The translations under genes were made by a program, and so were the position numbers. 64,000 bases of DNA from Amphiscolops sp. MND2022. Lineage: Eukaryota. Shown in pieces: positions 1-25,305 of the stretch. The stretch covers positions 71,674,001 to 71,738,000 of the forward strand of contig OZ076409.1 in assembly GCA_964187785.1 (NCBI GenBank). Reading direction: 5' to 3'. Under the pieces are notes generated by a model that was not told the DNA's origin, searched no databases, and worked only from the letters and a program-made list of their open reading frames with translations. The number at the start of each line of letters is the position of its first letter. The first letter of the stretch is position 1.

Positions 1-1365
1 CATCAAAAATGGGCCAAAATTACACGAAAAAATTGACCTTAAAATATCAAAATGTCAAAAAATCATCAAAACCACAGTTTCTTGGCGTTCTATCAACTCC
101 ATATGATACCAAACCAGGTACCGCCAATCGTTTGAGTTATAATAAAAAAACGTCTTTTTTGGCAAGAATTCCATACCATAAATAATAATCATGTTCCATA
201 TAAGAAGCGAATCATTTCAGATATATACCCTGTTCATTTTTTTAATATTACCGATTATTAATTTATTAGATGTTTTGAATGTGAGCTTCCTAAAAGGTTC
301 AGGTGTGATGATACGTAAATAGAACCTTAGTTTCATCGAAATCTCAATTGAATATGTCCAATCTTAACCATCAGATAACAAGAAACACTTAAGTACATTC
401 CATCTCCCCATCGGGGGAGATGAGAATGTACTTTCGAGAAGCCAAATACGTCCAACATTCAAACTTTTGTAACTTTGTATGTAACTCCTGAAACGAAGAA
501 GGAATAAAATTGTTTCTGGTACATACATGAGTCTTTACTTCAGCTTCTATTTCTGCTGAACAAAACCATTCGACTCTTTTGCCGGAATTAGGATCAATTG
601 TATTACCCAGTGAACAAAGGCATGACTGAAAACGCTTACTAATTTGTTCATAATTTTCCGGCCTTCCGAAATGATGAAACGTCCACATAACTAAGATAGC
701 AAGTGAATGACTGCGAAATGCACCTTATTAGATGAGGTAAATAACGTGTAAGACTCTCCTTTATCCTAACATGAGGTTGAGTTATGATCATTTGAGAATA
801 GTTTGATATGTGACTACAATAGTATAAAACAAGTACATTTTATATGAATAACGCCGTGGAAAGCGTTCAGAAAGGACAGTAGGCTTGTTTGGAACATGTA
901 TGTGTGGTGTCCCTTGGTGGCGTTCGCTTAGTGTATATGTCGAGGGGTATTCGAGTTGTTATGATAGAATTTACAAACAAGTCTTTTGTTTTTTGGTTTT
1001 TTTAAAATGTCGTTAAGTACCTGCATTCTATCCCCTTCTCAGAGATGACGTGAAGTTACGTTTGCTAAATAAATGTCATCGAAAGATCACACTCCCGACG
1101 AAATTAACTATCTTAACACGTGTTTAGAATTTTAAATGAACAACCGTATAAGATTTTTATATTTCATTGAGTTTGATAAAGTCTTTTGTTCTTCTCACTA
1201 CTATTTCAACCAATACACATATCCGTTACCATATCACATGTCTCCATTAGTACAACGCCACATAGCGTTCCGACGCCCACAGTCTGTGGGCATTCCGAGG
1301 CATGCCCTTCGACGACGTATGGCAAATGGAGCCATGCCCGCCGTCTTTACGGCGGTAGCGGCTAG
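1..1365 (+). mobile_element. Class D unit, 3' part (partial)
   Basis: Nearly identical and colinear with 23941-25305 (offset 23940). Ends in hairpin CCGCCGT-CTTT-ACGGCGG plus TAGCGGCTAG. Mobility is inferred. Confidence 0.7.
391..433. other. Internal palindrome P2 (representative; in all C, D and E units)
   Basis: AAGTACATTC-CATCTCCCC-ATCG-GGGGAGATG-A-GAATGTACTT. Also at 16277-16315, 24331-24373, 35057-35099, 39827-39867, 44582-44624 and 53656-53696. Confidence 0.9.
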
Positions 1366-2906
1366 GTGGGCGGGGAAATTTCACCCCGTTTGTATTCGGC
1401 CGACGGGTAGGGTCCTGGCGGCCGACGATCCGCCTTAAGCTAGCGGTATGTAGCAGAAATTGCAAAAAAAAGACCTAAAATTTAATCTAACCATTAGAAT
1501 TTGCTCAAAATTTGCATGCGGCCCTCAAATCCTAATGCAAGACGAAGTTCCTGCTGACGCTAAGCGTTCTATAAACTTTATAAAAAGTTATGGCCAATTT
1601 TTTGTTCAAAATTTCAACATTTTTGGGAAAATTCTAATTTTTCACTTAATATCTCAAAATGTAATAATTTTTGGACTTTGACTGTGAAACAAGCTTGGAA
1701 CCTTCATTTCGTGGCTGTGGCATTGCACTGAACACAAAAGATGTAAAGTTTTTACATTTTTCGAAAATTCGAGATTTTTGAAATTTTTTTCACTACTATC
1801 AGTACCTCATATGTCAAAAACACATCAGAAAAAAATTTTTATTTGCTTTAAATTGGAAACCTTGGTATCCATGGTTACTGTCGGAACCTACTCGCAGCCA
1901 AACACCCAACAGTTTGCATCCAATGTGAAAATAAAATTTTTTTTTGGGTCATAAGCGTTTCACATGGATTTTACAACTTAGTTTCAATTTACAAATTGGT
2001 CATATTGAACACAATATTTTCATCGAAGCTTGTCAGATACCGCCCTAATGCTCACTAATGGGCCTACTCGCAACGTTGGAACCGTTTATAGTAATAGAAA
2101 GTTTTAAAAAAATATTTTCACCCGGTCTTCAGTCATTTTTCAGTCATTCGGAACTTAACTTAGAAAAATTTCGACCAAAATACCCATTTTTTGTCAGGTC
2201 GAAAAATCAAATTCAGATTTTTAAGCGAAATTATTTACTCTGACGTAACTAGTGGGCCCCATGATACTCAAAAACACGATTGGGACCGGTACCAAGGGCT
2301 CCAATTTCATATGAGCCGCGATAAGACGTTATTTTGAGCAACACGTCTCAATAGAGGTAAACATCTCGCAAGCCTGAAGTCACAGTGAAAAGTAATTTCA
2401 TCAAGAATTTACTCATTTTTGTCAATCACTATGTGCACAGAGTGCGCAGGATGAGTTTCAGCACTATAATGAGGTTTTTGATGTAATCGGCCTGCTCAAG
2501 GGTGTGTATGAGACATTTTTTTCCCATATAGCTATATTTTCCAAAATTTTTAGCCCATTATCTCAAAAACCTAACTTCGCAAAATGCTTTCAACTACTTT
2601 ATTCTAAGGTTAGAATATGAATGAACACTGTGGTTGATCAGAACCTCTCAATTTTTTTGTTTTCCGAAAAAATACCTTCGCATGGGTTACATTTATGGCA
2701 GAAGAGAAAGCAGAAGATAAAAAATACGCTATTTTGCTAAGATAGAAACGCGATGATTGTGCATAAATACCCTTTAAATACTTCTAACGCAACCTTATGG
2801 ACCCAATATGATTGGAAATACCGTTCACAGTCCTCACATGTACTCTTTCTACAATCCAGACTGCACATTTTTTGAAAATTTTACATGTAGCTTTAAACTG
2901 AATCTT

Positions 2907-2954
2907 GTGATAGCCTTTTAAGTTGACCTTGTGTCAACTTGGGAAGGCTATCAC
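2907..2954 (+). other. Internal palindrome P1 (representative; in all complete A and B units)
   Basis: GTGATAGCCTTTTAAGTTGAC-CTTGT-GTCAACTTGGGAAGGCTATCAC. The B copy is at 12854-12897. Both end about 420 nt before the unit end. Confidence 0.9.
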
Positions 2955-5389
2955 CACCAAAAACTATAAACAAAAACTACCATTTGTTAATCGGATTTCG
3001 CTGTCGATGCCTATTTTCGTGATTGTATACTACCGTTTGTATCTTCCATCATGTCAGCTGACGATAGCATGCAGAGTTTGAAAAAATACCTATGAACTCG
3101 AAGACATTTTTGTTTATTATTTGGTAAATAATTTTATTTCTAAATAATAAATAACAACTTCTAACCTTTGAATACTATCACATTTGTTTTCTCTTCCGTT
3201 ATCAGTCTTCCGTCACCCATGATGTCATGTCAGCCTATGTCATGACCCCGTGATTTCAACAACAACGCCATATACCAACATCAACGCCCACCGTCTGTGG
3301 GCATGCCGAGGCATGCCCTTCGACGACGTATGGCAAATTTATCGTTGCCCGCACTCTGGAGTGCGGTAGCAGCTAGGTGGGCGGGGGTAATTCCCCTTCA
3401 AAAAATTCGGCCGGCGGGTTGGGTCCTGCCGGACGTCAAATAGTGTGAAACATCCAGTAGGAAACGGCGACATAAATCAGCGATTTTAAAATTTAACCGT
3501 TAGATTTCGGATTTGGAGTGCATGCGGCCCCAAAATGCCCATACGAATCGAAGTTCCTGCTGACGTTAAGCGATAAAAACATTTTATAAAAAGTTATGGC
3601 CCATTTTACGTTCACCTATAAGGGTAAAATGAGGAAAATTTTTACAAAGTCGCTGATAACTCAAAATACATTATTTTTTGGACTTTGACTGTGAAACAAG
3701 CTTAGAACCTTCATTTCGTGGCTGTGGCATTGCACTGAACACAAAAGATGTAAAGTTTTTACATTTTTCGAAAATTCGACATTTTTGATTTTTTTTTCAC
3801 TACTATCAGTACACTATATGTCAAAAACACCTCTGAAAAAAATTATTATTTGCTTAAAATTGGAAACCTTGGTATCCATGGTTTCTGTCGGAACCTACTC
3901 GCTGCCAAACACCCAACAGTTTGCATCCAATGTGAATTTAAATTTTTTTTCGAGGTCATAAGGGTTTCACAAGGTTTTCATAACTTAGTATTAAACTACA
4001 AACTGGTCATTTTCAACATAATATCTTTGTCGAGGCATTTCGGATATAGTCCTATTGCTCACGAACGGTCCTACTGGCAACGTAATAACCATTTATAGAA
4101 ATGTAAAGTTATAAAAAAAATTTTTCACCCGGTCTTCAGTCATTTTTCAGTCATTCGGAACTTAACTTAGAAAAATTTCGACCAAAATATCCATTTTTTG
4201 TCAGGTCGAATAATCAAATTCAGATTTTTAAGCAAAATTATTAACTCTGACGTAACCCATGGGGCCCATGATACTCAAAACAACGATTGACACTGGTATC
4301 AATGGCTCCAATAACATATGAGTCGCGATAAGACGTTATTTTGAGCATTACGTCTCAATTGAGGTAAAGATCTCGCAAGCCAGCGATCACTGTGAAATGT
4401 GATTTCATCAAAAATTTACTCTTTTTTGTCAATCACTATGTGCACAGAATGCGTAGGGTGCGTTTCAGCACTATAATGAGGTTTTTGAAGGCATCGGGTT
4501 GCTCAAGGGGTGGTATGAGACATTTTTGTCCCATATACTACTGTATTTTCCAAAATTTTTAGCCCAATATCTGCAAATACAAACTTGACAAAATACTTTC
4601 AACTACTTTATTCAAAGATTACAATATAGATGAACACTGTGGTTGATCAGAAACTTTCATCTCTTTCGTTTTCCGAAATATTTCCCTTCGCATGTGTTAC
4701 ATTCGTAGCAGAAAAAAAATCGAAACTGAAAAATACGCAATTTTGCTAATATAGAATCGCAATGATTGTGCCTAAAAACTCTTTAAACACTTCTAACGCG
4801 ACCTTACGCACTCAAAATGATCGAAAATGCTATTCACAATGGTGACAAGTGCTCTTTCTACGATCCTGACTGGACAAGGTTTGCATATTTTTCAAGTACC
4901 TGTCAGCTAAATCTTGTGATAGCCTTTTCAGTTGGCCTTGTGTCAACTTGGGAAGGCTATCACATCAAAAAACCATCAATAAAAATAATTTTTGTTTATT
5001 GGATCTTACAGTCGAAACTTTTTTTCGTGATTCTATACTACCGTTAGTATATTTCATCAGGTCACCTTACGATTGCATTCAGTCTTTGATAAAAACCTAT
5101 GAACTCAAAGTCACATTTATATATTTTTTTGCCAAAAAAACATCAAAAATATCTAAAATATATAAAATAGAGTCTTGAACATTTTTACATTTCAAGTTTC
5201 TGCCGTTATTAGGCCAATCAACGTCCTAGAGCCACATCCTGTCATACTGTACAACGCCACATAGTGTTGCGACGTGCACAGTCTGTGGGCATGCCGAGGC
5301 ATGCCCTTCGACGACGTATGCCGAATACCGCGGGCCTACGCCCGCGCTCCCCGGCTAGGTGGGCGGGGGTAATTCCCCAACAAAAAAAT

Positions 5390-5417
5390 CGGCCGGCGGG
5401 TCGGGTCCTGCCGGCCG
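5390..5417 (+). other. 5' head hairpin with GGGTNGGGTCC apex (representative copy)
   Basis: CGGCCGGCGGG-TCGGGT-CCTGCCGGCCG. Equivalents with different stems are at 1397-1424, 11355-11378 and 15356-15377. Confidence 0.85.
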
Positions 5418-8400
5418 TCCAAAATCAAAATCCTCCTAGTAGAAAACGGCATGTCAAACGAGCTATTTTTTTATTTAACCATACGAATTTCACCATTTTT
5501 TGCATGCGGCCCTGAAATGGCCATACGAGACGAAGTTCCTGCTGACGTTTTGCGATGTAAATGTTTTATAAAAAGTTATGGCCGATTTGTCATTCACCTA
5601 GAAGGGTAAAATGAGGAAAATTTTAACAAAGTCGCTGATAACTCAAAATGTGGTAATTTTTGGACTTTGACTGTGAAACAAGCTTGGAACCTTCATTTCG
5701 TGGCTGGGGCATTGGACTGAACACAAAAGATGTAAAGTTTTTACGTTTTTTGAAAATTCGACATTTTTGAAATTTTTTTCACTACTATCAGTACCCCATA
5801 TGTCAAAAACACCTCAGAAAAATATTTTTATTTGCTTTAAATTGGAAACCTTGGTATCCATGGTTTCTGTCGGAACCTACTCGCAGCCAAACACCCAACA
5901 GTTTGCATCCAATGTGAAAATAAAAATTTTTTCGGGGTCATAAGCGTTTCACAAGGATTTCTCAACTTAGTATTAATTTACAAAATGGTCATTTTGAACA
6001 TAATATTTTCATCGAGGCTTGTCGGCTATAGCCTTAATGTTCTAGAACGGTCCCACTGGCAACGTAGCAACCATTTATAGTAATATAAAAGGTTAAAAAA
6101 TTTTTTTCACCCGGTCTTCAGTCATTTTTCAGACATTCGGAACATAACTTAGAAAATTTTCGACCCAAATACCCATTTTTTGTCAGGTCGAAAATTAAAA
6201 TTCAGCTATTAAAGCAAAATTATTTACTCTGACGTAACCAGTGGGGCCCATGATACTCAAAAACACCATTGGCACTGGTACCAATGGCTCCAATAACATA
6301 TGAGTCGCGATAAGACGTTATTTTGAGCAATACGTCTCAATTGAGGTAAAGATCTCGCAAGCCAGCGATCACTGTGAAATGTAAATTCATTAAAAATTTA
6401 CTCATTTTCGTCAATCACCATGTGCACAGAGTGCGTAGGGTGAGTTCCAGCACTATAATGAGGTTTTTGAAGGCATCGGGTTGCTCAAGGGGTGGTATGA
6501 GACATTTTTTTCCTATATACTACTGTATTTTCCAAAATTTTTAGCCCAATATCTGGAAATACAAACTTGACAAAATACTTTCAACTACTTTATTCAAAGG
6601 TTACAATATAGATGAACACTGTGGTTGATCAGAAACTTTCATCTCTTTCGTTTTCCGAAATATTTCCCTTCACATGTGTTATATTTTTAGCAGAATAAAA
6701 AATCGAAACTGAAATATACGCTATTTTGCTAATATAGAATCGCAATGATTGTGCCTAAAAACTCTTTAAACACTTCTAACGCAACCTTACGCACCCGAAA
6801 TGATCGAAAATGCTATTCACAATTGTGACATGTGCTCTTTCTACGATCCTGGCTGGACAAGGTTTGCATATTTTTCAAGTACCTGTCTGCTGAATCTTGT
6901 GATAGCCTTTTAAGTTGGCCTTGTGTCAACTTGGGAAGGCTATCACTTCAAACAACCATCAACAAAAATAATTTTTGTTTATTGGATATTACAGTTGATA
7001 CCTTTTTTCGTGATTCTATATTACCGTTAGTATATTCCATGAGGTCACCTTACGATTGCATTGAGACTTTGATAAAAACCTATGAACTCAAAGTCACATT
7101 TATATATTTTTTTGCCCAAAAAAATCATCAAAAACATCTATAATATATAAAATAGAGTCTTTAACATTTTTACGTTTCAAGTTTCTGCCGTTATTAAGCC
7201 AATCAACTTCCTACAGCCACGCTCTCTGTCATTCTGTACAACGCCACATAGTGTTGCGACGTGCACGGTCTGTGGGCATGCCGAGGCATGCCCTTCGACG
7301 ACGTATGCCGAATACCGCGGGCCTACGCCCGCGCTCCCCGGCTAGGTGGGCGGGGGTAATTCCCCAACAAAAATTACGGCCGGCGGGTTGGGTCCTGCCG
7401 GACGTTCAAATAGCGCGAAGCATCTAGTAGAAAACAAGGAGTCCTGAAACAGCGATTTTAAAATTGAACCGTTAGAATTTGGTTTTAGATTGCATGCGGC
7501 CCTAAAATCCCCATACGAATGGAAGTTCCTGCTAGCGTTAAGCGATTGAAATAATATATAAAAAGTTATGGCCTATTTTTGGGTCACCGAGAAGGTCAAA
7601 ATGAAGAAAATTTTAACTAAGTTGCTGATAACTCAAAATGTGTTAATTTTTGGACTTTGACTGTGAAACAAGCTTAGAACCTTCATTTCGTGGCTGTGGC
7701 ATTGCACTGAACACAATAGATGTAGAGTTTTTACATTTTTTGAAAATTCGACATTTTTGATTTTTTTTCACTACTATCAGTACACTATATGTCAAAAACA
7801 CCTCTGAAAAAAATTATTATTTGCTTAAAATTGGAAACCTTGGTATCCATGGTTTCTGTCGGAACCTACTCGCTGCCAAACACCCAACAGTTTGCATCCA
7901 ATGTGAATTTAAAATTTTTTTCGAGGTCATAAGGGTTTCACAAGGTTTTCATAACCTAGTATTAAACTACAAACTGGTCATTTTCAACATAATATCTTTG
8001 TCGAGGCATGTCGGATATAGTCCTATTGCTCACGAACGGTCCTACTGGCAACGTAATAACCATTTATAGAAATGTAAAGTTATAAAAAAATTTTTTCACC
8101 CGGTCTTCAGTCATTTTTCAGTCATTCGGAACTTAACTTAGAAAAATTTCGACCAAAATATCCATTTTTTGTCAGGTCGAAAAATCAAATTCAGATTTTT
8201 GAGCAAAATTATTAACTCTGACGTAACCCATGGGGCCCATGATACTCAAAACAACGATTGACACTGGTATCAATGGCTCCAATAACATATGAGTCGCGAT
8301 AAGACGTTATTTTGAACATTACGTCTCAATTGAGGTAAAGATCTCGCAAGCCAGCGATCACTGTGAAATGTGATTTCATCAAAAATTTACTCTTTTTTGT

Positions 8401-11243
8401 CAATCACTATGTGCACAGAATGCGTAGGGTGCGTTTCAGCACTATAATGAGGTTTTTGAAGGCATCGAGTTGCTCAAAGGATGGTATGAGACATTTTTGT
8501 CCCATATACTACTGTATTTTCCAAAATTTTTAGCCCAATATCTGGAAATACAAACTTAACAAAATACTTTCAACTACTTTATTCAGAGGTTACAATATAG
8601 ATGAACACTGTGGTTGATCAGAAACTTTCATCTCTTTCGTTTTCCGAAATATTTCCCTTCGCATGTGTTACATTCGTAGCAGAAAAAAAAATCGAAACTG
8701 AAAAATACGCAATTTTGCTAATATAGAATCGCACTGATTGTGCCTAAAAACTCTTTAAACACTTCTAACGCAACCTTAGGCACCGAAAATGATCGAAAAT
8801 GCTATTCACAATGGTGACATGTGCTCTTTCTACGATCCTGGCTGGACAAGGTTTGCATATTTTTCAAGTACCTGTCAGCTAAATCTTGTGATAGCCTTTT
8901 CAGTTGGCCTTGTGTCAACTTGGGAAGGCTATCACATCAAAAAACCATCAACAAAAATAATTTTTGTTTATTGGATCTTACAGTCGATACTTTTTTTCGT
9001 GATTCTATACTACCGTTAGTATATTTCATCAGGTCACCTTACGATTGCATTCAGTCTTTGATAAAAACCTATGAACTCAAAGTCACATTTATATATTTTT
9101 TGGCCAAAAAAACATCAAAAATATCTAAAATATATAAAATAGAGTCTTTAACATTTTTACGTTTCAAGTTTTTGCCGTTATTAAGCCAATCAACTTCCTA
9201 CAGCCACGCTCTCTGTCATACTGTACAACGCCACATAGTGTTGCGACGTGCACAGTCTGTGGGCATGCCGAGGCATGCCCTTCGACGACGTATGCCGAAT
9301 ACCGCGGGCCTACGCCCGCGCTCCCCGGCTAGGTGGGCGGGGGTAATTCCCCAACAAAAAAATCGGCCGGCGGGTCGGGTCCTGCCGGCCGTCCAAAATC
9401 AAAATCCTCCTAGTAGAAAACGGCATGTCAAACGAGCTATTTTTTTATTTAACCATACGAATCTCACCATTTTTTGCATGCGGCCCTGAAATGGCCATAC
9501 GAGACGAAGTTCCTGCTGACGTTTTGCAATGTAAATGTTTTATAAAAAGTTATGGCCGATTTGTCATTCACCTAGAAGGGTAAAATGAGGAAAATTTTAA
9601 CAAAGTCGCTGATAACTCAAAATGTGTTAATTTTTGGACTTTGACTGTGAAACAAGATTGGAACCTTCATTTCGTGGCTGGGGCATTGGACTGAACACAA
9701 AAGATGTAAAGTTTTTACGTTTTTTGAAAATTCGACATTTTTGAAATTTTTTTCACTACTATCAGTACCCCATATGTCAAAAACACCTCAGAAAAAAATT
9801 TTTATTTGCTTTAAATTGGAAACCTTGGTATCCATGGTTTCTGTCGGAACCTACTCGCAGCCAAACACCCAACAGTTTGCATCCAATGTGAAAATAAAAA
9901 ATTTTTCGGGGTCATAAGCGTTTCACAAGGATTTCTCAACTTAGTATTAATTTACAAAATGGTCATTTTGAACATAATATTTTCATCGAGGCTTGTCGGC
10001 TATAGCCTTAATGTTCTAGAACGGTCCCACTGGCAACGTAGCAACCATTTATAGTAATATAAAAGGTTAAAAAATTTTTTTCACCCGGTCTTCAGTCATT
10101 TTTCAGACATTCGGAACATAACTTAGAAAATTTTTGACCCAAATACCCATTTTTTGTCAGGTCGAAAATTAAAATTCAGCTATTAAAGCAAAATTATTTA
10201 CTCTGACGTAACCAGTGGGGCCCATGATACTCAAAAACACCATTGGCACTGGTACCAATGGCTCCATTAACATATGAGTCGCGATAAGACGTTATTTTGA
10301 GCAATACGTCTCAATTGAGGTAAAGATCTCGCAAGCCAGCGATCACTGTGAAATGTGATTTCATCAAAAATTTACTCATTTTTGTCAATAACTATGTGCA
10401 CAGAGTGTGTAGGGTGCGTTTCAGCACTATAATGAGGTTTTTGAAGGCATCGGGTTGCTCAAGGGGTGGTATGAGACATTTTTTTCCTATATACTACTGT
10501 GTTTTCCAAAACTTTTAGCCCATTATCAGGAAAAAATAATTTGACAAATTACTTTCAACTACTTTATTCAAAGGTTACAATATAGATGAACACTGTGGTT
10601 GATCAGAAACTTTCATCTCTTTCGTTTTCCGAAATAATTCCCTTCGAATGTGTTACATTTGTAGCCGGAAAAAAAACCGAAACTAAAAAATACGCGATTT
10701 TGCTGAGATAGAACCGGGATAATTGTGTCTAAATACTCTTTAAATACTTCTAACGCGACCTTACGGACCCAAAAGGATTAAAAATGCCACTCACAATGCT
10801 GACATGTGCTCTTTCGACGATCCTGGCTGGACAAGTTTTGCAAATATTTCAAGTACCTGTTAACTGAATTTTGTGATAGCCTTTTAAGTTGGCCTTGTGT
10901 CAACTTGGGAAGGCTATCACATCAAAAAACTTTCAACAAAAAAACTTTTTGTTTATTGGATATTGCTGTCGATACCTTTTTTAGTGATTCTATACTACCG
11001 TTAGTATATTCCATCAGGTCACCAGACGATTGTATTCAGTATTTGATGAAAATTTATGAACTCGAAGTCTCTTTCATATGTTTTTTGTTCAAAAAAATTA
11101 TCAAAAAAATTTATATTATAAACAATTGAGTCTTTAACTTTTTTATTCCCCAATTTTCCAGTGTTATTAGGCTCATCAACTTCCTACTGCCACATCCAGA
11201 CATTAGTACAACGCCACAAAGTGTTGCGACGTCCACCGTCTGT

Positions 11244-11263
11244 GGGCATGCCGAGGCATGCCC
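11244..11263. promoter_or_regulatory. 20-bp palindrome GGGCATGCCGAGGCATGCCC; candidate p53-family response element (representative copy)
   Basis: 9-bp inverted arms around GA. Read as two decamers (GGGCATGCCG, AGGCATGCCC) it matches RRRCWWGYYY x2 at 19/20 positions. The motif is certain; the function is inferred. Confidence 0.5.
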
Positions 11264-11293
11264 TTCGACGACGTATGCCAAAAATAGCGCCCT

Positions 11294-11321
11294 CCGCGGT
11301 CACTACCGCGGTAGCAGCTAG
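11294..11321 (+). terminator. Helitron-like 3' terminus: 18-nt hairpin + CTAG (representative copy)
   Basis: CCGCGGT-CACT-ACCGCGG ends 10 nt before the unit end (TAGCAGCTAG). This matches the known Helitron 3' signature of a 16-20 nt palindrome about 10-12 nt upstream of a CTRR end. Confidence 0.55.
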
Positions 11322-13316
11322 GTGCGGGGGGGAAACCCCAACAAAATTTTTGGAGGATTCGGGTAGGGTCCTGAATCCGAGTTCAGTGCTGCCAGCTTCC
11401 GTTAAGAAAATTTGGATAGGATTCGGGATCTCGTGATCTAACCATAGGATTTTAAAGTTGGAGCGGCCCCCACCAGATTTTCCGAAAATTAGCGCCCCCC
11501 ACCGGGTTCCATACCCCGGAAAATTTTTTTCTGGCCACACGGGCGACCGTTAGGGGGTCATTTTAGGGGTAAAATTCATATTGGGCCACATAACTTTTTT
11601 TCTGTTGATTTAAAACTTTGGGACCCTTCTAAAAGTTTCTTGGCCGTGTTGCAGGGGCCCCGGAGGTCCAAACCAAATTTTTCTATCTTGAAGCTATCTC
11701 CAAGTACCCCCCCGCCCAAAACGTTATTTTTCCGGAAACGCAGGTTTTTGACCCGGAAGGAGTCGTCGGAGCGCGGGGTCGTTAGGTGATGTATTGGGGA
11801 CGGCCTTGAGACGAAGCGGGGGACATGCAGTTTGCCAACCCCAGTTTACCCCCCGGACGGGAAATGACCGTTATATGAGCGGGAAAAATGCCCCCTTCCA
11901 CGTTTTACCGCTATTTCCGGTGTGAAGGAATGGGAGTAGCGCGTCGGGTGCCATATATCAAAAGTAGGTTTAGACAAGGACCTATCGGAAACATGTGGTT
12001 TGGGACCCCCTGGACCAACCCGTTAGCGGGAAATGGGGCTTCCGGCCCGTTTTTTTACTGCTAAAACCGTAAAATGGGCATTGAGGGGTAAATATCCCGT
12101 GAACGCGTGGAGCAATCGTGTCCATCACTACTACAAGGTTTCATACCCATGATATGGTGCCTTCAGGGGGGCAAACAGATTTCCGCTATCTATCACCGTT
12201 ACCGACTTGGCCCCCCAGCCTAACCGCTATGTGACCGGAAATGTCACTTTTTGAGCCCAAAGGGTCGGTCCCAGCCGGGGAACGTTAGGTAACTTATTGT
12301 AGTACTCAATGAGACGAGTTGGGGGATATAGTTTCAGTCACCCCCCGTTACCCCTTGGGACCGGAAATGACCGTTATGTGGGTAAAATTGCAATTTTTAT
12401 ACTTTTTCAAGTGTATTTAGGTGTGGAAGGAGTGGTAATAGGTGCTTGGACACTATATGATGTAATGGAGGTCGTGAGGAGAGCATTCGGAAATAACCGT
12501 TATGTTGACCCCAAAGTCCCCCTGGTACCGTTAACGACCGGAAATGGCCAAATTTTGTGTCTATTGGGTACAAATGTTTGGTATTTTATGGATAAAAGTA
12601 CCTGGAAGGTGTTTTAAAGGCCTCCAGAAGTGAACATAGTCATGAAACCTTGTGGGGGGTAACGGTATATAGCACCGGAAGTCCAAACCGTTGGTCACAG
12701 AATAGGTTTTTTGGTTTCAAAATGTCTTTAGGCATAGTTTTGTGGGTTGAATCGTCATAATATCAACTAATACGGACTTTTTTCGGAAATAAAATTTTTT
12801 CACATTAGTTTCAGGGACCTCCAATGCTTCAGTCAACATAACCGTTACATTTTGATAGCCTTTCAAGTTGACCTGGTGTCAACTTGGAAGGGCTATCCTT
12901 CTAAAATCGTTAATCAAGAGTGTTTTTAGGGTAGGTATATGTTGCATTAGTACCAATTAGAGCTTCATCAACAGTTTGCCAACGGCAAAAACGATGTCGT
13001 GATAATTCCGTTATAAAAATATTAGTTAACAAATTGTTTTCAAAGTTGATTTTTTCCATTAAAAATGTGTCCTGATGCCACCAAATTGAATAAAAGAATA
13101 AATGGTATTGACTAAAACTAAATAACAATGAAAAAGAAGATCAACATTTTTATTAGGTCTCATTATGGAAGCTGAAACCTCACGTTTTAGTTTAATTAAC
13201 GTCAACGCCACATACTTTACATCAACGCCCACCGTCTGTGGGCATGCCGAGGCATGCCCTTCGACGACGTATACCAAACAACCTCCATATCTACACCCAT
13301 CCGCGGTAGCAGCTAG
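11322..13316 (+). mobile_element. Class B unit (GC-richer, 1995 bp)
   Basis: Starts GTGCGGGGGG. Interior is not alignable by eye to class A, but it shares the head hairpin, palindrome P1 and the 3' core. Homologous to 16583-18558 and 18559-20530. Confidence 0.7.
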
Positions 13317-15306
13317 GTGGGCGGGGGTAATTCCCCAACAAAAAAATCGGCCGGCGGGTCGGGTCCTGCCGGCCGTCCAAAATCAAAATCCTCCTAGTAG
13401 AAAACGGCATGTCAAACGAGCTATTTTTTTATTTAACCATTAGAATTTCACCATTTTTTGCATGCGGCCCTGAAATGGCCATACGAGACGAAGTTCCTGC
13501 TGACGTTTTGCGATGTAAATGTTTTATAAAAAGTTATGGCCGATTTGTCATTCACCTAGAAGGGTAAAATGAGGAAAATTTTAACAAAGTCGCTGATAAC
13601 TCAAAATGTGATAATTTTTGGACTTTGACAGTGAAACAAGCTTGGAACTGTCATTTCGTGGCTGTGGCATTGCACTGAACACAAAAGATGTAAAGTTTTC
13701 ACATTTTTTGAAAATTCGACATTTTTGAAATTTTTTTCACTACTATCAGTACCCCATATGTCAAAAACACCTCAGAAAAAAATTTTTATTTGCTTTAAAT
13801 TGGAAACCTTGGTATCCATGGTTTCTGTCGGAACCTACTCGCAGCCAAACACCCAACAGTTTGCATCCAATGCGAAATAAAAAATTTTTTCGAGGTCATA
13901 AGCGTTTCACAAGGTTTTCATGATTTAGTATTAAATTACATAGTGGTCATTTTAAACATAAAATTTTGGTCCAGGCATGTCGGATATAGTCTGAATGCTC
14001 ACGAACGGTCCTACTGGCAACGTAGGAACCATTTATAGTAATAAAAAGTATTAAAAAAATTTTTTCACCCTGTCTTCAGTCATTTTTCAGACATTCGGAA
14101 CTTAACTTAGAAAATTTTCGAACCAAATACCCATTTTTTGTCAGGTCGAAAATTGAAATTCAGCTATTAAAGCAAAATTTTTTACTCTGACGTAACCAGT
14201 GGGGTCCATGATACTCAAAAATACGATTGGGACTGGTACCAATGGCTCCTATATCATATGAGCCGCGATAAGACGTTATTTTGAGCAATACGTCTCAATT
14301 GAGGTAAACATCTCGCAAGCCTGGGATCACAGTGAAAAGTAATTTCATCAAAAAATTACTCATTTTCGTCAATCACTATGTGCATAGAGTGGGTAGGGTG
14401 AGTTCCAACACTATAATGAGGTTTTTGAAGGCATCGGGTTGCTCAAGGGGTGGTATGAGTCATTACTTTCCTATATACAACTGTATTTTCAAAAACTTTT
14501 AGCCCATTATCTGGAAAAACTAACTTGACAAAATACTTTCAATTAATTTATTCAAAGGCTACAATATAGATGAACCCTGTGGTTGATCAGAAACTTTCAT
14601 CTCTGTCGTTTTCCGAAATAACTCCTTTCAAATGTGTTACATTTGTAGCAGAAAAAAAAACTGAAACTAAAAAATACGCGATTTTGCTGAGATAGAATCG
14701 CAATGGTTGCGCCTAAAATCTCTTTAAATACTTCTAACGCGACCTTACGGACCCAAACTGATTGAAAATGCCATTCACAATGCTGACATGTGCTCTTTCT
14801 ACGATCCTGGCTGGACAAGTTTTGCATTTTTTTCAAGTACCTGTTAACTGAACATTGTGATAGCCTTTCAAGTTGGCCTTGTGTCAACTTGGGAAGGCTG
14901 TCACATCAAAAAACTGTCAACAAAAATACCATTTGTTTATAAGATATTGCTGTCGATGCTTCACTTCGTGATTCGATCATGTCGTGAGTTCCTTCCATCA
15001 GGTCAGCTAACATTTGGATTCAGTGTTTGATAAGAACCTATGATTTTCATGACAATTTTTGTTTTTTTTTTGCCAACAAAAAGTACGAATAAATGATATA
15101 AAACATATTTGTAACCTTTAGGAAGTTTAACTTTACCTTTATTTACCGTTATCATCGCCACCCACCCCTACGACCTCGCAGTGTCCTCATTACAACGCCA
15201 CATAGTGTAGCGACGCCCACAGTCTGTGGGCATGCCGAGGCATGCCCTTCGACGACGTATGGCAAATATAGCGTTAGCCCGCGGTCACTACCGCGGTAGC
15301 AGCTAG
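13317..15306 (+). mobile_element. Class A unit (1990 bp)
   Basis: Colinear with the other A units, with its own variant pre-core and tail sequence. Confidence 0.7.
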
Positions 15307-16582
15307 GTGGTCGTTAGCATGGGATTTTCTTTATGAGCGTAGTCCACTTTTTTTAGGCCGGGGTAGGGTCCCGGGCCGTTACCAATTTCTTACGGAGGAA
15401 AAATGTGAAAATCTGCGAGTTTAAAAAATTGGCCCGTACGATTTGGCTGAAAATTGGCATACAGCATCGTCTTGGTAAACAAATGACTTTGTCTTAGTGA
15501 CATTTTGCCCAGGAAATTCAAAAAGTTGGTCAAATTGAAAATTTTTTGACCGTCTAAGGCAAAAATTTGACTTTTTCGCTTTTTTTGGTCAATTTCCTCA
15601 GAATTGGTTGATTTTGGTGAAGTGAGTCATAAGAGGTTATAAGGTCTGCAAATAGCCATCAATTGGCTTGCATAATCAGATTTTGTCAAAAGTGTTTAGT
15701 TTTTTCAAAATTTCACACTTTTTTTTCATTTCAATGTTTTTTGATATAATTTATTGAATTTTTTCTAAGTTCCACTAAATATTTTTAAAATGTTTTTAAA
15801 ACACCTTTTTTTGCACGTTTTTGATGTTTTTTGCTCTCCCATATAGGTTTTCGCATACGGGGAACCTGAATCTGGCAACGAAGTAACTTTATTCCGCAGT
15901 TCAACTTACGCCATTTTTAATAGTGAAAAATCACTCATTTTCAATCTAACGAGTGAAAATATCAGAATTTAAAAACCTAAAGTTGAGTTTAAGGCGACTT
16001 ACAGGTAGAAACAAATGCTCAGAAACAAACTGATTTCTTGTATTAGCTAAAGAAAGCCTTTAAAATTCTTTTTACTTTCTTTAAATCAATATTCGACACT
16101 TCATGAAATTTGTCAGTGGAAAAACTTTATCATTTTTTAAATTAAAAACTTGCTTTGTTGGTCATTTCCGTTAGTCATTAGTAGCTGTGTATAGCTCCGA
16201 AGCCTTTCAAGTTCTTTTGACCCTATTTGAAAATTTTTGATACTGCATAATCAATCCGAGAGAATGAAACAGTTGTGTACATTCCATCTCCCTCTTGGGG
16301 GAGATGAGAATGTACTTCCTAAAGTCCAGGTACTATAGATCATATTTGGTTTTATGCGACGCCCTCTATGCTAGTGCATATAAATACAAGTTGTTTGGCT
16401 GGATTTTGCTTCTGACTTGACGTATACTGTACGTTTGGTACTGACAATACCCATCATATACATAACAAACGTCAACGCCACATACCCTTACCAACGCCCA
16501 TAGTCCGTAGGCATGCCGAGGCATGCCTTTCGACGACGCGCGCCAAACACAAGCGCGCCCGCACTTTTGCGGTAGCGGCTAG
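15307..16582 (+). mobile_element. Class C unit (1276 bp, single copy)
   Basis: Starts GTGGTCG with a unique T-rich interior. Retains the GGGTAGGGTCC hairpin (15356-15377), palindrome P2 (16277-16315), a variant core and hairpin+CTAG. Confidence 0.7.
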
Positions 16583-19500
16583 GTGCGGGGGGGTAACCCC
16601 AACAAAATTTTTGGAGGATTCGGGTAGGGTCCTGAATCCGAGTTCAGTGCTGCCAGCTTTCGTTAAGAAAATTTGGATAGGATTCGGGATCTCGTGATCT
16701 AACCATAGGATTTTAAAGTTGGAGCGGCCCCCACCAGATTTTCCGAAAATTAGCGCCCCCCACCGGGTTCCATACCCCGGAAAATTTTTTTCTGGCCACA
16801 CGGGCGACCGTTAGGGGGTCATTTTAGGGGTAAAATTCATATTGGGCCACATAACTTTTTTTCTGTTGATTTAAAACTTTGGGACCCTGCTAAAAGTTTC
16901 TTGACCGTGTTGCAAGGGCTCCGGAGGTCCAAACCAAATTTTTCTATCTTGAAGCTATCTCCAAGTACCCCCCCGCCCAAAACGTTATTTTTCCGGAAAC
17001 GCAGGTTTTAGACCCGGAAGGAGTCGTCTGAGCGCGGGGTCGTTAGGTGATGTTTTGGGGACGGCCTTGAGACGAAGTGGGGGACATGTAGTTTGCCGAC
17101 CTCGGTTTACCCCTCGGACAGGAAATGACCGTTATTTGAGCGGGAAAATTGCCCCCCTCCACGTTTTACCGCTATTTCCGGTGTGAAGGAGTAGGAGTAG
17201 CGCGTCGGGTGTTATATATCAAAAGTAGGTTTAGACAAGGATCTATCGGAAACATGTGGTTTGGGACCCCCTGGACCAACCCGTTAGCAGGAAATGGGGC
17301 TTCCGGCCCGTTTTTTTACGGTTAAAAACGGAAAATGGGCATTGAGGGGTAAATATCTCGTGAACGCGTGGAGCTACGGTGTCCTTCACTACTTCAAGGT
17401 TTCATACCCATGATATGGTGCCTTCAGGGGGGCAAACAGATTTCCGCTATCTATCACCGTTACGGACTTGGCCCCCCAGCCTAACCGTTAAGTGACCGGA
17501 AATGTCATATTTTGAGCCCAAAGGGTCGGTCCCAGCCAGGGAACGTTAGGTAACTTATTGTAGTACTCAATGAGACGAGTTGGGGGACATAGTTTCAGTC
17601 ACCCCCCGTTACCCCTTGGGACCGGAAATGACCGTTATGTGGGTAAATTTGCAATTTTTATACTTTTTGAAGGGCATTTAGATGCGGAAGGAGTGGTAAT
17701 AGGTGCTTGGACACTATATGATGATAGGGAGGACGTGAGGCGAGCATTCGAATATAACCGTTATGTTGACCCCAAAGTCCCCCTGGTACCGGAAGTGACC
17801 CGTAATGGTCAAATTTCGTGTTTAAAGGTTACAAATGTTTGGTGTTTTATGGAAAACAGTGCCTATTAGGTGTTTCGACGGTCTGCAGTCGTGAACATAG
17901 TCATGAAACCTTGTGGGGGGTAACGGGTTATAGCACCGGAAGTCCAAACCGTTGGAGACAGGATAAGTTTTTTGGTTTTAAAATGTCTTTCGGCCTACTT
18001 TTGTCGACTATTATGGACTATTTTTGGAAAATAAAGTTTTTTCCATATAGTTTCAGAGACTCCGAAACCTCAACCAACATAACCGTTACCTTATGATAGC
18101 CTTTCAAGTTGGCCTGGTGTCAACTTGGAAGGGCTATCCTTCAAAAATCATTAATCCAGTGTGTTTTTGAGTATGCTTGTTTTACTTTAGAATCAATTAG
18201 AGCTTCAAGAAAAGATTGCCAACGACAAAAACTATGTCGTGATGATTCCGTTATTACAATAATAGTTACCAAAATGTTGATAAAGTTGATTTTTTACATT
18301 TCAAATATGTCCTAAATGCCAGAAAACCTCTTTACCAAACAAATGGTATTGATTGAATTGTAAATAGCAGCTAATAAAAGTTCAAATTGAATATTACGTT
18401 TCATTATGCAAGCTGAAACGTCATATTATAGTTTCATTAACGTCAACGCCACATACTTTACATCAACGCCCACCGTCTGTGGGCATGCCGAGGCATGCCC
18501 TTCGACGACGTATACCAAATTCCTCCAACACAACACCCCCGAGCGCGTTAGCAGCTAGGTGCGGGGGGGAAACCCCAACAAAATTTTTGGAGGATTCGGG
18601 TAGGGTCCTGAATCCGAGTTCAGTGCTGCCAGCTTTCGTTAAGAAAATTTGGATAGGATTCGGGATCTCGTGATCTAACCATAGGATTTTAAAGTTGGAG
18701 CGGCCCCCACCAGATTTTCCGAAAATTAGCGCCCCCCACCGGGTTCCATACCCCGGAAAATTTTTTTCTGGCCACACGGGCGACCGTTAGGGGGTCATTT
18801 TAGGGGTAAAATTCATATTGGGCCACATAACTTTTTTTCTGTTGATTTAAAACTTTGGGACCCTGCTAAAAGTTTCTTGGCCGTGTTGCAGGGGCCCCGG
18901 AGGTCCAAACCAAATTTTTCTATCTTGAAGCTATCTCCAAGTACCCCCCCGCCCAAAACGTTATTTTTCCGGAAACGCAGGTTTTTGACCCGGAAGGAGT
19001 CGTCGGAGCGCGGGGTCGTTAGGTGATGTATTGGGGACGGCCTTGAGACGAAGCGGGGGACATGCAGTTTGCCAACCCCAGTTTACCCCCCGGACGGGAA
19101 ATGACCGTTATATGAGCGGGAAAAATGCCCCCTTCCACGTTTTACCGCTATTTTCGGTGTGAAGGAGTGGAAGTAGCGCGTCGGGTGCCATATATCAAAA
19201 GTAGGTTTAGACAAGGACCTATCGGAAACATGTGGTTTGGGACCCCCTGGACCAACCCGTTAGCGGGAAATGGGGCTTCCGCCTCCTTTTTTTACTGCTA
19301 AAACAGTAAAATGGGCATTGAGGGGTAAATATCTCGTGAACGCGTGGAGCTACGGTGTCCATCACTACTACAAGGTTTCATACCCATGATATGGTGCCTT
19401 CAGGGGGGCAAACAGATTTCCGCTATCTATCACCGTTACTGACTTGGCCCCCCAGCCTAACCGCTATGTGACCGGAAATGTCACTATTTGAGCCCAAAGG

Positions 19501-20530
19501 GTCGGTCCCAGCCGGGGAACGTTAGGTAACTTATTGTAGTACTCATTGAGACGAGTTGGGGGATATAGTTTCAGTCACCCCCCGTTACCCCTCGAGACCG
19601 GAAATGACCGTTATGTGAGTAAAATTGCCATTTTTGTACTTTTTGAAGGGCATTTAGATGCGGAAGGAGTGGTAATAGGTGCTTGGACACTGTATGATGT
19701 AAGGGAGGACGTTAGGCGAGCATTCGGACATAACCGTTATGTTGACCCTAAAGTCCCCCTGGTACCGTAAACGACCGGAAATGGTCAAATTTTGTGTCTA
19801 TTGGGTACAAATGTTTAGTATTTTGTAAATAAAAGTATCTATTAGGTGTTTCGACGGTTTGCAGTAGTGAACATAGTCATCAAACCTTGTGGGGGGTAAC
19901 GGTATATAGCACCGGAAGTCCAAACCGTTGGTGACAGGATAGGTTTTTTGGTTTTAAAATGTCTTTCGGCGTACCTTTGTCGACTATTAAGGACTATTTT
20001 TTAAAAATTAAAGTTTTTCTATATAGTTTCAGAGACTCCGAAACCTCAACCAACATAACCGTTACCTTTTGATAGCCTTTCAAGTTGGCCTGGTGGCAAC
20101 TTGGAAGGGCTATCCTTCAAAAATCGTTAATCAAGAGTGTTTTTGGGTAGGTATATATTCAATTAGTACCAATTAGAGCTTCATCAACAGTGTATCAACG
20201 ACAAAAACTAAGCCGTCATGATTCCGTTGTTAGAATAGTAGTGAGCTAATTGTTGACAAAAATATTTTTTTTATACAAAATGTGTCCTAAATGCCAGGAA
20301 ATCTATTTACCTAACAAATGGTTATGATTGGAATGTATGTAACAGATTTATAAAAGTTCAAATTGAATATTACGTTTCATTATGGAAGCTGAAACGTCAT
20401 ATTTTAGTTTAATTAACGTCAACGCCACATACTTTACATCAACGCCCACCGTCTGTGGGCATGCCGAGGCATGCCCTTCGACGACATATACCAAATACAT
20501 ACCTAACGACGCCCGTACATCCCGGGCTAG
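16583..20530 (+). mobile_element. Two class B units (16583-18558, 1976 bp; 18559-20530, 1972 bp)
   Basis: Colinear with 11322-13316, with near-identical heads and different tails. Confidence 0.7.
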
Positions 20531-23500
20531 GTGGGCGGGGGTAATTCCCCAACAAAAAAATCGGCCGGCGGGTCGGGTCCTGCCGGCCGTCCAAAATCAA
20601 AATCCTCCTAGTAGAAAACGGCATGTCAAACGAGCTATTTTTTTATTTAACCATACGAATTTCACCATTTTTTGCATGCGGCCCTGAAATGGCCATACGA
20701 GACGAAGTTCCTGCTGACGTTTTGCGATGTAAATGTTTTATAAAAAGTTATGGCCGATTTGCCATTCACCTAGAAGGGTAAAATGAGGAAAATTTTAACA
20801 AAGTCGCTGATAACTCAAAATGTGTTAATTTTTGGACTTTGACTGTGAAACAAGCTTGGAACCTTCATTTCGTGGCTGGGGCATTGGACTGAACACAAAA
20901 GATGTAAAGTTTTTACGTTTTTTGAAAATTCGACATTTTTGAAATTTTTTTCACTACTATCAGTACCCCATATGTCAAAAACACCTCAGAAAAAAATTTT
21001 TATTTTCTTTAAATTGGAAACCTTGGTATCCATGGTTTCTGTCGGAACCTACTCGCAGCCAAACACTTAACAGTTTGCATCCAATGTGAAAATAAAATTT
21101 TTTTCGGGGTCATAAGCGTTTCACAAGGATTTCTCAACTTAGTATCTATTTACAAATTGGTCATTTTGAACACATGATTTTCATCGAAGCGTGTCAGATA
21201 CCACCCTAATGCTCACGAATGGGCCTACTGGCAACGTTGGAACCATTTTTAGTAATAGAAAGTATTAAAAAAATATTTTCACCCGGTCTTCAGTCATTTT
21301 TCAGACATTCGGTACTTAACTTAGAAAAATTTCGCATCAAAAACCCATATTTGGTAGGGTCGAAATTTGAAATTCAGTTTTTTATGCAAAATTATTAACT
21401 CTGACGTAACCAGTGGAGCCCATGATACTCAAAATCACGATTGGGACTGGTATCAGTGGCTCCAATAACATATGAGCCGCGATAAGACGTTATTCAGAGC
21501 AAACGCTCTAAATCGAAGTAAACATCTCTGAAGCCTGGGATCACAGTGAAATGTGATATCACCAAAAGTTTACTCTTTTTTGTCAATCACTATGTACACA
21601 GAGTGCGTAGGGTGAGTTTCAGGACTATAATGAGGTTTTTGAAGTAATCGCGCTGCTCAAGGGGTGGTATGAGACTATTTTTTCCCATATACTACTACAT
21701 TTCCATAAATTTGCAGTCCATTGTCTTGGAAAGATAACTTCACAAAAACAATTTTTGTACTCTATTCAGTTATTAGAATAAAGTTGAACACTGTGGTTGA
21801 TCAGAAATGCTCAATTCTTTTGGTTTTTAAAAAAATTCCTTCGCATTCGTTACATTTGTGGAAGGAAGGTTATCAGTAGCTCCAAAAAAAACGAAATTTA
21901 GCACGAACAGACATGCAACGATGCAAAGCAAAAACGTTTTTACAACTTTCGACGTCATTATTTTACCCAAGAAGATTGAAAATATCATTCGCAATGCTGT
22001 CATTCGCTATATATACGATCGCGGTCAATTTACAAACATTTAGATTTCATTGTTCTGCTTGAAAACCAATTTTTGTCAGGTCGAAATTTTAAATTTTGCC
22101 TGGGGAGCAAAACCCTTCACGCTGAAGTAAACAGTGGGGCCCAAGTTACTCAAAAACAAGAAAGAGACTGCTACAATATGTCCTAATAACATATGGACCA
22201 CGATAGTACACTTTTCACACAAAAAACTCTCATCCGAAGTAAATATGTTGAAAGCTTTTAATCACCGTGAGAAGTGATTTCATCAAAAAATAACTCTTTT
22301 TTGTCAATCACTATTTACACAGAATTTGTAAAGTTAGTTTGAGTCATGAAATGAGGCTTTACCGTAATATGGGTTGCTCAAGGTGTTATATAAGACAAAA
22401 ACTTCCTCTTTTCTACTAGCTTCTTCAAATATTTCAACCCTTTGTCACAATAAGTTAATATTCAAAATATCTTTGAAATGTATCTTTATGTTGGGGTGAA
22501 GTCTAAGAACAATAACTATGATCGAAGAATGCTAGTACTGGTGTTTGAACCATGTCCGGATGAACAAATCACAAAATCATCAAAAAATTGTTCCCTTTTT
22601 TGGTTATTTTGGCAGTACTAAAAATGTTAGCTGATAAATAATTTTTTCGATGGCACCATTGGATTCCTCTCAAAAAGTTGGTTATATGACCTGTGTAATA
22701 ACCCCGTATCTTTTCAATTTAAATATATTTAAAAAGCCAACTATTTTGACCAAAATCCTAAAAATCATACCATTTCCTAAAAATTTTCAAATGCACCCCA
22801 TTTGACGTATAAGATAAGCACAGAAAACTATCATTTACCGATCAACTCTACTCCCATTGTAGATTATTAGAATTCTGTTTAGAATGAATTTTGATGGATA
22901 TTAAAAAAATTTTGAACCCTCCAAAAATGGGCCAAAATTACACGAAAAAATTGACCTTAAAATACCAAAATGTCAAAAAATCATCAAAACCACGGCTTCT
23001 TGGGGTTCTATCAACTCCGCGTGGTCCACAGAGTATGCTAAAACAGGATTTACCCGTTTTTGAGCAATATGTGAAAAAGCCGACATTTTTGGGAAAGAAA
23101 AACATACCATTTCCTAAAAAAATTCAAATGCACGTAATTTGCCGTATTAGAATAGCACAGAAAACTATCACATACCAATCAACTCTACTTCCATTGCAGA
23201 TGAACAGAATTTTGTTTAGAATGAATTTTACCGGATAATAAAAAAATTTGAATCCTTCAAAAATGGGCCAAAATTACACGAAAAAATGGACCTTAAAAAT
23301 TTAAAAAGTCAAAAAATCATCAAAACAACAGCTTCTTGGGGTTCTATCAACTCCACGAGGTCCACAGAGTATGCTAAAACAGGTTTTACCCGTTTTTGAG
23401 CAATATGTGAAAAAGCCGACATTTTTGGGAGAGAAAAACATACCATTTCCTAAAAAAATTCAAATGCACGCCATTTGCCGTATGAAAATAGCACAGAAAA

Positions 23501-25305
23501 CTATCACATACCAATCAACTCTACTTTCATTGCAGATGAACAGAATTTTGTTTAGAATAAATTTTACCGGATAATAAAAAAATTAGATTCCTTCTAAAAT
23601 GGGCCAAAATTACACGAAAAAATGGACCTTAAAATTTTAAAATGTCAAAAAATCATCAAAACCACGGCTTCTTGGGGTTCTATCAACTCCACGTGGTCCA
23701 CAGAGTATGCTTTATAGAGAGAATAAAACCCGGTTTTACCCATCTTTGAGCAAAATGTGAAAATACCGACATTTTTGGAAAAGAAAAAAATACCATTTTC
23801 TAATAAATTTCAAATGCACGCCATTTGCTGTATGAGAATAACACAGAAAGCTGTCACATACCGATCAACTCTACTTCCATTGTAGATTATCAGAAGTTTG
23901 TTTAGAATAAATTTTGATGGTTAATAAAAAAAATTGAATCCATGAAAAATGGGCCAAAATTACACGAAAAAATTGACCTTAAAATATCAAAATGTCAAAA
24001 AATCATCAAAACCACAGTTTCTTGGCGTTCTATCAACTCCATATGATACCAAACCAGGTACTGCCAATCGTTTGAGTTATAATAAAAAAACGTCTTTTTT
24101 GGCAAGAATTCCATACCATAAATAATAATCATGTTCCATATAAGAAGCGAATCATTTCAGATATATACCCTGTTCATTTTTTTAATATTACCGATTATTA
24201 ATTTAATAGATGTTTTGAATGTGAGCTTCCTAAAAGGTTCAGGTGTGATGTTACGTAAATAGAACCTTAGTTTCATCGAAATCTCAATTGAATATGTCCA
24301 ATCTTAACCATCAGATAACAAGAAACACTTAAGTACATTCCATCTCCCCATCGGGGGAGATGAGAATGTACTTTCGAGAAGCCAAATACGTCCAACATTC
24401 AAACTTTTGTAACTTTGTATGTAACTCCTGAAACGAAGAAGGAATAAAATTGTTTCTGGTACATACATGAGTCTTTACTTCAGCTTCTATTTCTGCTGAA
24501 CAAAACCATTCGACTCTTTTGCCGGAGTTAAGATCGATTGTATTACCCAGTGAACAAAGGCATGACTGAAAACGTTTACTACTTTGTTCATAATTTTCCG
24601 GCCTTCCGAAATGATGAAACGTCCACATAACTAAGATAGCAAGTGAATGACTGCGAAATGCACCTTATTAGATGAGGTAAATAACGTGTAAAACTCTCCT
24701 TTATCCTAACATGAGGTTGAGTAATGATCATTTGAGAATAGTTTGATATGTGAATACAATAGTATAAAACAAGTACATTTTATATGAATAACGCCGTGGA
24801 AAGCGTTCAGAAAGGACAGTAGGCTTGTTTGGAACATGTATGTGTGGTGTCCCTTGGTGGCGTTCGCTTAGTGTATATGTCGAGGGGTATTCGAGTTGTT
24901 ATGATAGAATTTACACACAAGTCTTTTGTTTTTTGGTTTTTTTAAAATGTCGTTAAGTACCTGCATTCTATCCCCTTCTCAGAGATGACGTGAAGTTACG
25001 TTTGCTAAATAAATGTCATCGAAAGATCACACTCCCGACGAAATTAACTATCTTAACACGTGTTTAGAATTTTAAATAAACAACCGTATAGGATTTTTAT
25101 ATTTCATTGAGTTTGATGAAGTCTTTTGTTCTTCTCACTACTATTTCAACCAATACACATATCCGTTACCATATCACATGTCTCCATTAGTACAACGCCA
25201 CATAGCGTTCCGACGCCCACAGTCTGTGGGCATGCCGAGGCATGCCCTTCGACGACGTATGGCAAATGGAGCCATGCCCGCCGTCTTTACGGCGGTAGCG
25301 GCTAG
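20531..25305 (+). mobile_element. Class D unit (4775 bp)
   Basis: First ~1.3 kb is homologous to class A. It continues with a diverged internal duplication, ~338-bp subrepeats, palindrome P2 and the core. Carries a private 14-bp insertion. Confidence 0.7.
22761..24040 (+). repeat. Internal ~338-bp tandem subrepeat, about 3.7 copies (class D)
   Basis: AAAATGGGCCAAAATTACACG recurs near 22924, 23260, 23597 and 23947. Confidence 0.92.

Follow-up and report, generated by a model that had tools for sequence, protein, structure and literature searches.

Evidence for joint-specific shuffling in a mixed-family array of non-coding units

A head-to-tail array with shared unit ends

The window, by which we mean the whole stretch of 64,000 nt that was analysed, is self-similar throughout, on one strand. 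Units were delimited by cutting after CTRG at every joint, and joint cutting together with self-similarity resolves the whole window into a head-to-tail non-coding array of 26 units and 25 joints, with every unit on the + strand. A scan of the window for head loops returned 25 on the + strand and 0 on the - strand. Unit length ranges from 1 to 5 kb across the array and several different families are intermixed: 15 complete 2-kb units of the main family (including the unit that we call A), one 2-kb unit cut at the end, five complete long units (4.76-5.08 kb), a further long unit cut by the window start, three units of family E and a single F unit. In the long units a main-family body comes first, and they carry within them 3.8-4.8 copies of a 336-bp tandem repeat; the bodies of E and F are barely related to the main family. 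All units have their ends in common, even in barely related families, with a tail of ~110 nt and a head of ~70 nt (Table 1). G+C along the window varies between 32 and 46%. The DNA appears to come from a eukaryote. The copy number of the 336-bp repeat is unequal between the sister units at 36032 and 49525.

The longest open reading frame beginning with ATG, GTG or TTG is 222 aa, and 22 reach at least 100 aa. Twelve frames searched against Pfam gave nothing at cut-off (best E 0.011), and no gene for RepHel, a recombinase or any other enzyme was found in the 64-kb window. Rfam searches of the window and of a related metagenome contig, L002, gave 0 matches at the gathering score; the best, with E-values of 0.053 at the joint and 0.28 in L002, were treated as chance. 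No tRNA was found in the window.

Table 1. Positions of the array, its units, joints and hairpins within the window
Feature	Position	Strand	Remarks
Whole array	1..64000	+	First and last units cut by window ends
D unit	1..1365	+	3′ part of a long unit; outlier among four D copies
Unit A	1366..3376	+	2011 bp; divergent 2-kb subfamily, single copy in window, both ends intact
Unit B	3377..5358	+	Sister of 25306-27291 (98.5%)
Unit C'	5359..7345	+	Near-identical to 27292-29278 (1 difference)
E family unit	11322..13316	+	45% G+C; body barely related to main family
F family unit	15307..16582	+	1276 bp; body largely different, ends common with other units
Further E units	16583-18558 and 18559-20530	+	
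Long D unit	20531..25305	+	4775 bp; internal 336-bp tandem repeat
Second B and C' units	25306..29278	+	
336-bp tandem repeat in long units	22761-24041, 33502-34767, 38262-39596, 43027-44292, 51755-53354		
Joint CTAG|GTG	1362..1368	+	D tail to A head
Joint CTAG|GTG	3373..3379	+	A tail to B head
15-nt window at D-B joint	25301..25315	+	Proposed 'empty site'
Variant joint CTGG|GTG	54602..54608	+	Tail ends 17 nt early in terminal-hairpin loop at another CTRR; head intact
Head hairpin of A	1397..1424	+	Variable stem, conserved loop region GGGT[A/C/T]GGGTCC
Internal hairpin of A	2907..2954	+	~45 nt, GATAGCC class; z=-7.5
Core tail hairpin	3292..3325	+	Around GGCATGCC-GA-GGCATGCC; in 25/25 tails and L002
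Terminal hairpin of A	3349..3366	+	7-bp stem, 4-nt loop, ends 10 nt before unit end (Helitron1-type 3′ signal)

The joint reads CTAG|GTG, the bar marking the border between two units, at 24/25 positions. A perfect 7-bp terminal stem ending 10 or 12 nt from the unit end was found in 20 of the 25 tails, with five different sequences among these stems; that of the F unit is 5 bp long, at 10 nt. The terminal hairpin is absent from the three E tails and from the truncated tail of the variant joint. In F and L002 the core tail hairpin has a compensated change from G-C to A-T. Heads carry a short G/C hairpin and a second, compensated hairpin with a variable stem. Over the heads of A, the main family, E, F and L002 the stems of this head hairpin covary, with 56 Watson-Crick and 6 G.T pairs among 70 cells and 0 C.A, and the G.T pairs fall on the + strand. 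Such compensated stems suggest that the ends are maintained. Three joint regions folded as DNA gave z=-3.5 to -4.9. Moreover, each of the 25 units that reach the 3′ end contains exactly one internal hairpin. Two classes of it occur (in 18 and 7 units), and their distribution does not follow the families. These bulged hairpins (e.g. 2907-2954 and 391-436, and 565-607 in L002) lie 300-970 nt before the unit end and are kept across differing bodies.

None of the 25 tails ends in poly(A) and none of the 25 heads is cut. The longest inverted match between head and tail in the six units tested was 4-7 nt and was not common between families. The 17-nt tail piece missing from the variant joint has no orphan copy elsewhere in the window; this single case could reflect a cut after CTRR, with imperfect microhomology as an alternative. 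The three E tails (13277-13316, 18519-18558 and 20491-20530) are strongly divergent over their last 40 nt, and one of them has its final 16 nt in common with a main-family tail.

Outside the window, a metagenome scan returned three matches, of which L001 and L003 match only the 23-24-nt palindrome and L002, a contig of 1172 bp, is a true relative. It contains the core tail, an internal hairpin of the second class and a head resembling that of E (local score 136 vs a shuffled maximum of 44), and its positions 885-1172 can be aligned over ~285 nt with the E unit at 11322. The joint of L002, CGAG|GTG, connects an F/D-like tail to an E-like head, and therefore a mixed joint is present in a distant relative, as judged from one contig. 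L002 has no strong terminal hairpin. Viral contigs were scanned three times with 0, 0 and 0 matches. Prokaryote genomes gave 0 and then 16 single matches to a looser pattern, which we regard as chance since none has the head loop, and plasmids and phages gave no match.

Unit A and the two matched blocks

An earlier note on this DNA had described two paralogous blocks, only the first of which contains A, and its block coordinates proved right. In global alignments 1-1365 and 23941-25305 are 98.75% identical (17 substitutions), 3377-5358 and 25306-27291 98.49% (30 substitutions, 6 gap columns), and 5359-7345 and 27292-29278 99.95% (1 substitution). The units further on, 7346-9332 and 29279-31270, are just 87% alike, so the block match ends at a joint. 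A is indeed restricted to the first block: it is 78-80% identical to the 14 other complete 2-kb units, and no near copy of it exists in the window. Identity between the two D tails is complete over their last 60 nt, as is that between the heads at 3377 and 25306 over their first 120 nt. Five nt are shared by the D and A tails and ten by the A and B heads, which confines the breakpoint to GCTAG|GTGGGCGGGG, a window of exactly the ~15 nt that had been proposed and one whose left edge depends on a single diagnostic base.

The same note had read the blocks as a clean pair of empty and filled sites flanked by sister units, and this reading held in part. Sister pairs were recovered for 3377/25306 (at 100/100) and for 5359/27292 (at 100/99). 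For the upstream D units sister status was rejected: among the four D copies, compared over their shared 1365 nt, the unit at 1-1365 is the outlier with 13 private differences, and just one site unites it with the unit whose end is at 25305. The anchors are also of unequal age. The D and B pairs agree (p=0.56), whereas the C' pair is far younger than the B pair (1 vs 30 substitutions, p=3e-8). Therefore the blocks did not arise in one step, and a single block duplication is ruled out. Other look-alike pairs of the array likewise diverge by 1.2-2%, and the four D tails lead into four different heads.

When the unit order was shuffled 20,000 times, the pattern X-a-Y-Z / X-Y-Z (or X-Y-a-Z) was obtained with P=0.018, a post hoc value for a pattern chosen after seeing the sequence; the corresponding values were P=0.27 for one repeated adjacency and P=0.39 for X-a-Y / X-Y. 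From the aligned sequences an empty site for A is plausible, not proven. An old D-B duplication followed by gain or loss of A and by recent copying of C' is one possible history, and independent assembly is another. On its own the pair fits insertion and loss of A alike, and a single 15-nt event taken alone could reflect microhomology repair too. What does stand is that the exchange is tied to the joint, which the whole array shows far better than this one breakpoint. Each copy of the C' pair (5359-7345 and 27292-29278) is bounded by end regions and preceded by a member of the older B pair; the pair may represent a recent unit-sized copy or conversion.

Linkage across the joint

Linkage was followed along the joint region at 24/25 joints, the truncated joint being left out, by dividing it into 13 anchored segments and comparing their distance matrices (Mantel). 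Across CTAG|GTG, between the terminal hairpin and the next head, r was -0.05 (p=0.78); the remaining 11/12 adjacent segment pairs gave r=0.45-0.93, with p=0.0005 each. The pair across the joint gave r=0.09 (p=0.12) for the 18 main/long joints. Tail-head combinations numbered 18 vs 18.5 expected at random, and body-tail combinations 13 vs 21.0. At 13 main-family joints the site-pair r2 was 0.05-0.14 across the joint (null about 0.08) and 0.25-0.49 on one side. These statistics draw on the 25 joints of the window only. Seven family switches could be mapped, to 15, 24, 19, 19, 9, 9 and 9 nt, in windows based on few copies (one only for A and for F).

Were homology the driver, linkage would break first in the longer invariant core block. 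There it persists (r=0.45, and 0.67 in the main/long subset), and the variable hairpin upstream stays with its own body, which counts against homology. Taken together, these data make it very probable that a joint-specific process exists, and the D-A-B pair is one sample of array-wide joint-specific shuffling. We judged an assembly chimera unlikely, as an assembler would not switch within 9-15 nt yet keep the tail linked upstream. A shallow contig from run X1 (window 3372-3548) starts exactly at the joint GCTAG, as expected of a branch off varying upstream tails, and one from run X2 has a loose end before 3280, its tail being joined to an unknown body; both are too low in depth to be evidence.

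Exchange is not restricted to the joint. Of the 19 switches that donor painting located over 1.4 kb, 4 lie no more than about 25 nt from the joint and the other 15 lie elsewhere. Counted per base, the joint nevertheless shows strong enrichment, and its switches are underestimated by painting because tail-head combinations recur. The nearest neighbours of units change along their bodies. Moreover, the long units at 31271-31800 and 36032-36280 combine near-identical bodies with differing main-family heads; exchange of heads thus occurs inside units too. Since bodies are mosaic, long units swap heads and 15/19 switches lie off the joint, host recombination or conversion is also active.

Could host recombination be all there is? 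Unequal crossing-over, single-strand annealing or microhomology repair would then have built the array, with the GC-rich hairpins as a break hotspot and the unit ends as relics. Mosaic bodies and heads are what such a history would leave; two main-family units that have one head type in common are identical over a long stretch from the joint on, and one 15-nt event fits microhomology repair. We nevertheless consider this explanation unlikely, because linkage is kept across identity tracts of 42-65 nt and lost at the joint, three of the mapped switches, between barely related families, fall within 9 nt, and no joint is ragged bar one, itself ending in CTRR. Compensated stems point to maintained ends, and adjacent units of one type were seen 0 times vs 0.84 expected, a weak difference in the same direction.

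A rolling-circle reading and related systems

We think it fairly probable that the units are non-autonomous rolling-circle (Helitron-like) elements and that the joint serves an HUH enzyme as origin and target alike. Each joint would constitute a complete tail-plus-head origin. A putative HUH enzyme, encoded elsewhere, would nick after CTAG, one strand would be peeled off as far as the next CTAG, the resulting unit circle would be closed with a perfect joint, and this circle would be joined into another joint of an array. Since every array joint is an end-to-end junction, such an enzyme could initiate at one joint, terminate at the following one and insert the circle at any further joint. We infer the role of the joint as target; it would leave no footprint, give all units one orientation and make their neighbours random. 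The unit bodies would in addition be reworked by unequal exchange and gene conversion.

A at 1366 would most likely represent one such insertion between D and B units, and by analogy with known elements we favour insertion over precise loss from the other block. As described in the available text of PMC5876387, Helraiser makes circles with exact end-to-end junctions and left no empty donor sites, and its purified transposase forms end-to-end junctions and cleaves them precisely in vitro. Loss of A is still allowed, since Helitrons have been reported to undergo footprint-free somatic excision in maize (PMC10095026).

Helitron1 elements are recognised by 5′ TC, a 3′ hairpin 10-12 nt from CTRR and insertion at A|T (PMC5148889, PMC11417382). 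The CTRR end is present in the array, with CTAG in 24/25 tails and CTGG in one (L002 has CGAG), as is the hairpin 10-12 nt from the end in 21/25 tails (20 with 7 bp, one with 5 bp). The 5′ TC is absent, as 25/25 heads start with GTG after CTRG, and the joints between units are G|G vs the A|T target. Because the 3′ half of the rule is found and the 5′ half is not, we do not file the units as Helitron1. With no array end or solo copy in the window, the true termini and the target are deduced from the joints. Hallmarks of Helitron2/Helentron (HLE2) elements, namely terminal inverted repeats of 11-18 nt and T|T insertion, were not found (4-7 nt, joints G|G). Against a Helitron-like reading stand the three E tails and L002 without a strong terminal hairpin, the CGAG of L002, the absence of RepHel from the window, the lack of empty donor sites reported for Helraiser and the mosaic bodies.

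A bolder proposal, which we put forward only tentatively, is that these are eukaryotic single-strand DNA elements of a self-targeting class, marked by an end signature of its own (CTAG|GTG, four joint hairpins and one internal hairpin per unit). Its members would insert into, and maybe excise from, their own joints, building integron-like cassette arrays common to several families in more than one organism (L002).

The same arrangement could be the work of a site-specific recombinase that swaps strands in a 7-nt core, CTAGGTG, and moves units in and out as circles in the manner of integron cassettes, which we regard as decidedly unlikely. Tyrosine recombinases usually have an overlap of 7 nt, the length of the invariant core, which is found at 24/25 joints. 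Reversible exchange would explain clean gain and loss equally, and the one bulged internal hairpin per unit may recall folded attC-type sites. However, tail CCCGC and head GCGGG are spaced differently in different tail types, unlike fixed binding arms, which were not seen, and the core is broken in the CTGG|GTG joint and in the CGAG|GTG of L002. The Helitron-type 3′ hairpin would moreover have to be coincidence, and no recombinase gene lies in the window.

Target-primed retrotransposition, by SINE-like or telomeric retroelements aimed at their own joint as in HeT-A/TART/TAHRE, would give one orientation (26/26 units) and mixed families, and the + strand hairpins could fold as RNA. It is improbable nonetheless, as the hallmarks of non-LTR elements and SINEs (a poly(A) or simple-repeat tail, 5′ truncation, a tRNA or known-RNA head) were not found: 0/25 tails have poly(A), 25/25 heads are intact, no Rfam family reached the gathering score and no tRNA was found in the window. 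Most improbable of all are cut-and-paste elements with a CTAG target that repeatedly insert into the previous target duplication, the double insertion described for elements making target duplications (McGurk and Barbash, 10.1101/158386), since one CTAG does lie between neighbours at 24/25 joints but the TIR (DDE) hallmarks are missing, with inverted matches of at most 4-7 nt unshared between families (6 units) and no insertion in either orientation (26/26 units point one way though CTAG is palindromic).

Returning to the preferred rolling-circle reading, if the joint is the target then the array would be a safe harbour that the elements build for themselves, and a route from transposon to long-period satellite. 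It would hint as well at a site-specific nuclease or recombinase that is so far undescribed. The usual view takes tandem Helitron arrays as concatemers of one circle and attributes long-period satellites to unequal crossing-over. Neither account predicts random neighbours from several families with exact joints. The self-targeting class, if true, would amount to a eukaryotic integrator of 1-5 kb cargo that is site-specific and footprint-free. The linkage test can be applied to any long-read assembly for finding such arrays.

Integron cassette arrays and the HeT-A/TART/TAHRE telomere arrays of Drosophila likewise consist of mixed units that face one way and change their order at a defined joint. 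Unlike the former, the units described here have no genes, attC boxes or integrase, and unlike the latter they have neither poly(A) nor 5′ truncation. Within the literature covered, with most subscription papers and Repbase outside its scope, we found no description of arrays that mix families, have GTG heads and are randomised at an exact joint. Replitrons, as far as the available text of PMC10288648 describes them, are alike in being HUH elements, as is proposed for the array units, in orientation-specific integration on the 3′ side of a short target sequence (for Replitron-1, RG) and in a right-end hairpin; that text mentions no mixed arrays. They are defined by a Y1 Rep and short direct terminal repeats, whereas in the array there is no Rep in the window and the shared CTAG or GTG is assignable to either end.

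Helitron1/HLE1 elements and Helraiser (PMC11417382, PMC5148889 and PMC5876387, in the portions available) are alike in the 3′ hairpin 10-12 nt from CTRR, the absence of terminal inverted repeats, the internal tandem repeats of long units and the exact end-to-end joints. Compared with Helitron1/HLE1, the array units have 5′ GTG rather than TC, other elements as neighbours rather than host A|T, and long conserved multi-hairpin ends on both sides, and there is no RepHel in the window. Self-insertion of Helitrons has been proposed in Fusarium, Paramecium Helitrons have been proposed to target telomeric repeats in one orientation (PMC13085455), and transposon-mosaic arrays have been described at centromeres (10.64898/2026.09.17.752431).

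According to citing papers, tandem (head-to-tail) Helitron arrays in plants, bats and cnidarians were read as concatemers of one element or subfamily (Xiong et al. 2016). The Hydractinia array HSymSHlR, in the available text of PMC11934779, is likewise a head-to-tail rolling-circle array with varied unit lengths and an internal repeat (372 bp); three end motifs of our array had no match in the text-form supplementary sequences of that paper. The array described here differs from tandem Helitron arrays in that its neighbours are random draws from several families.
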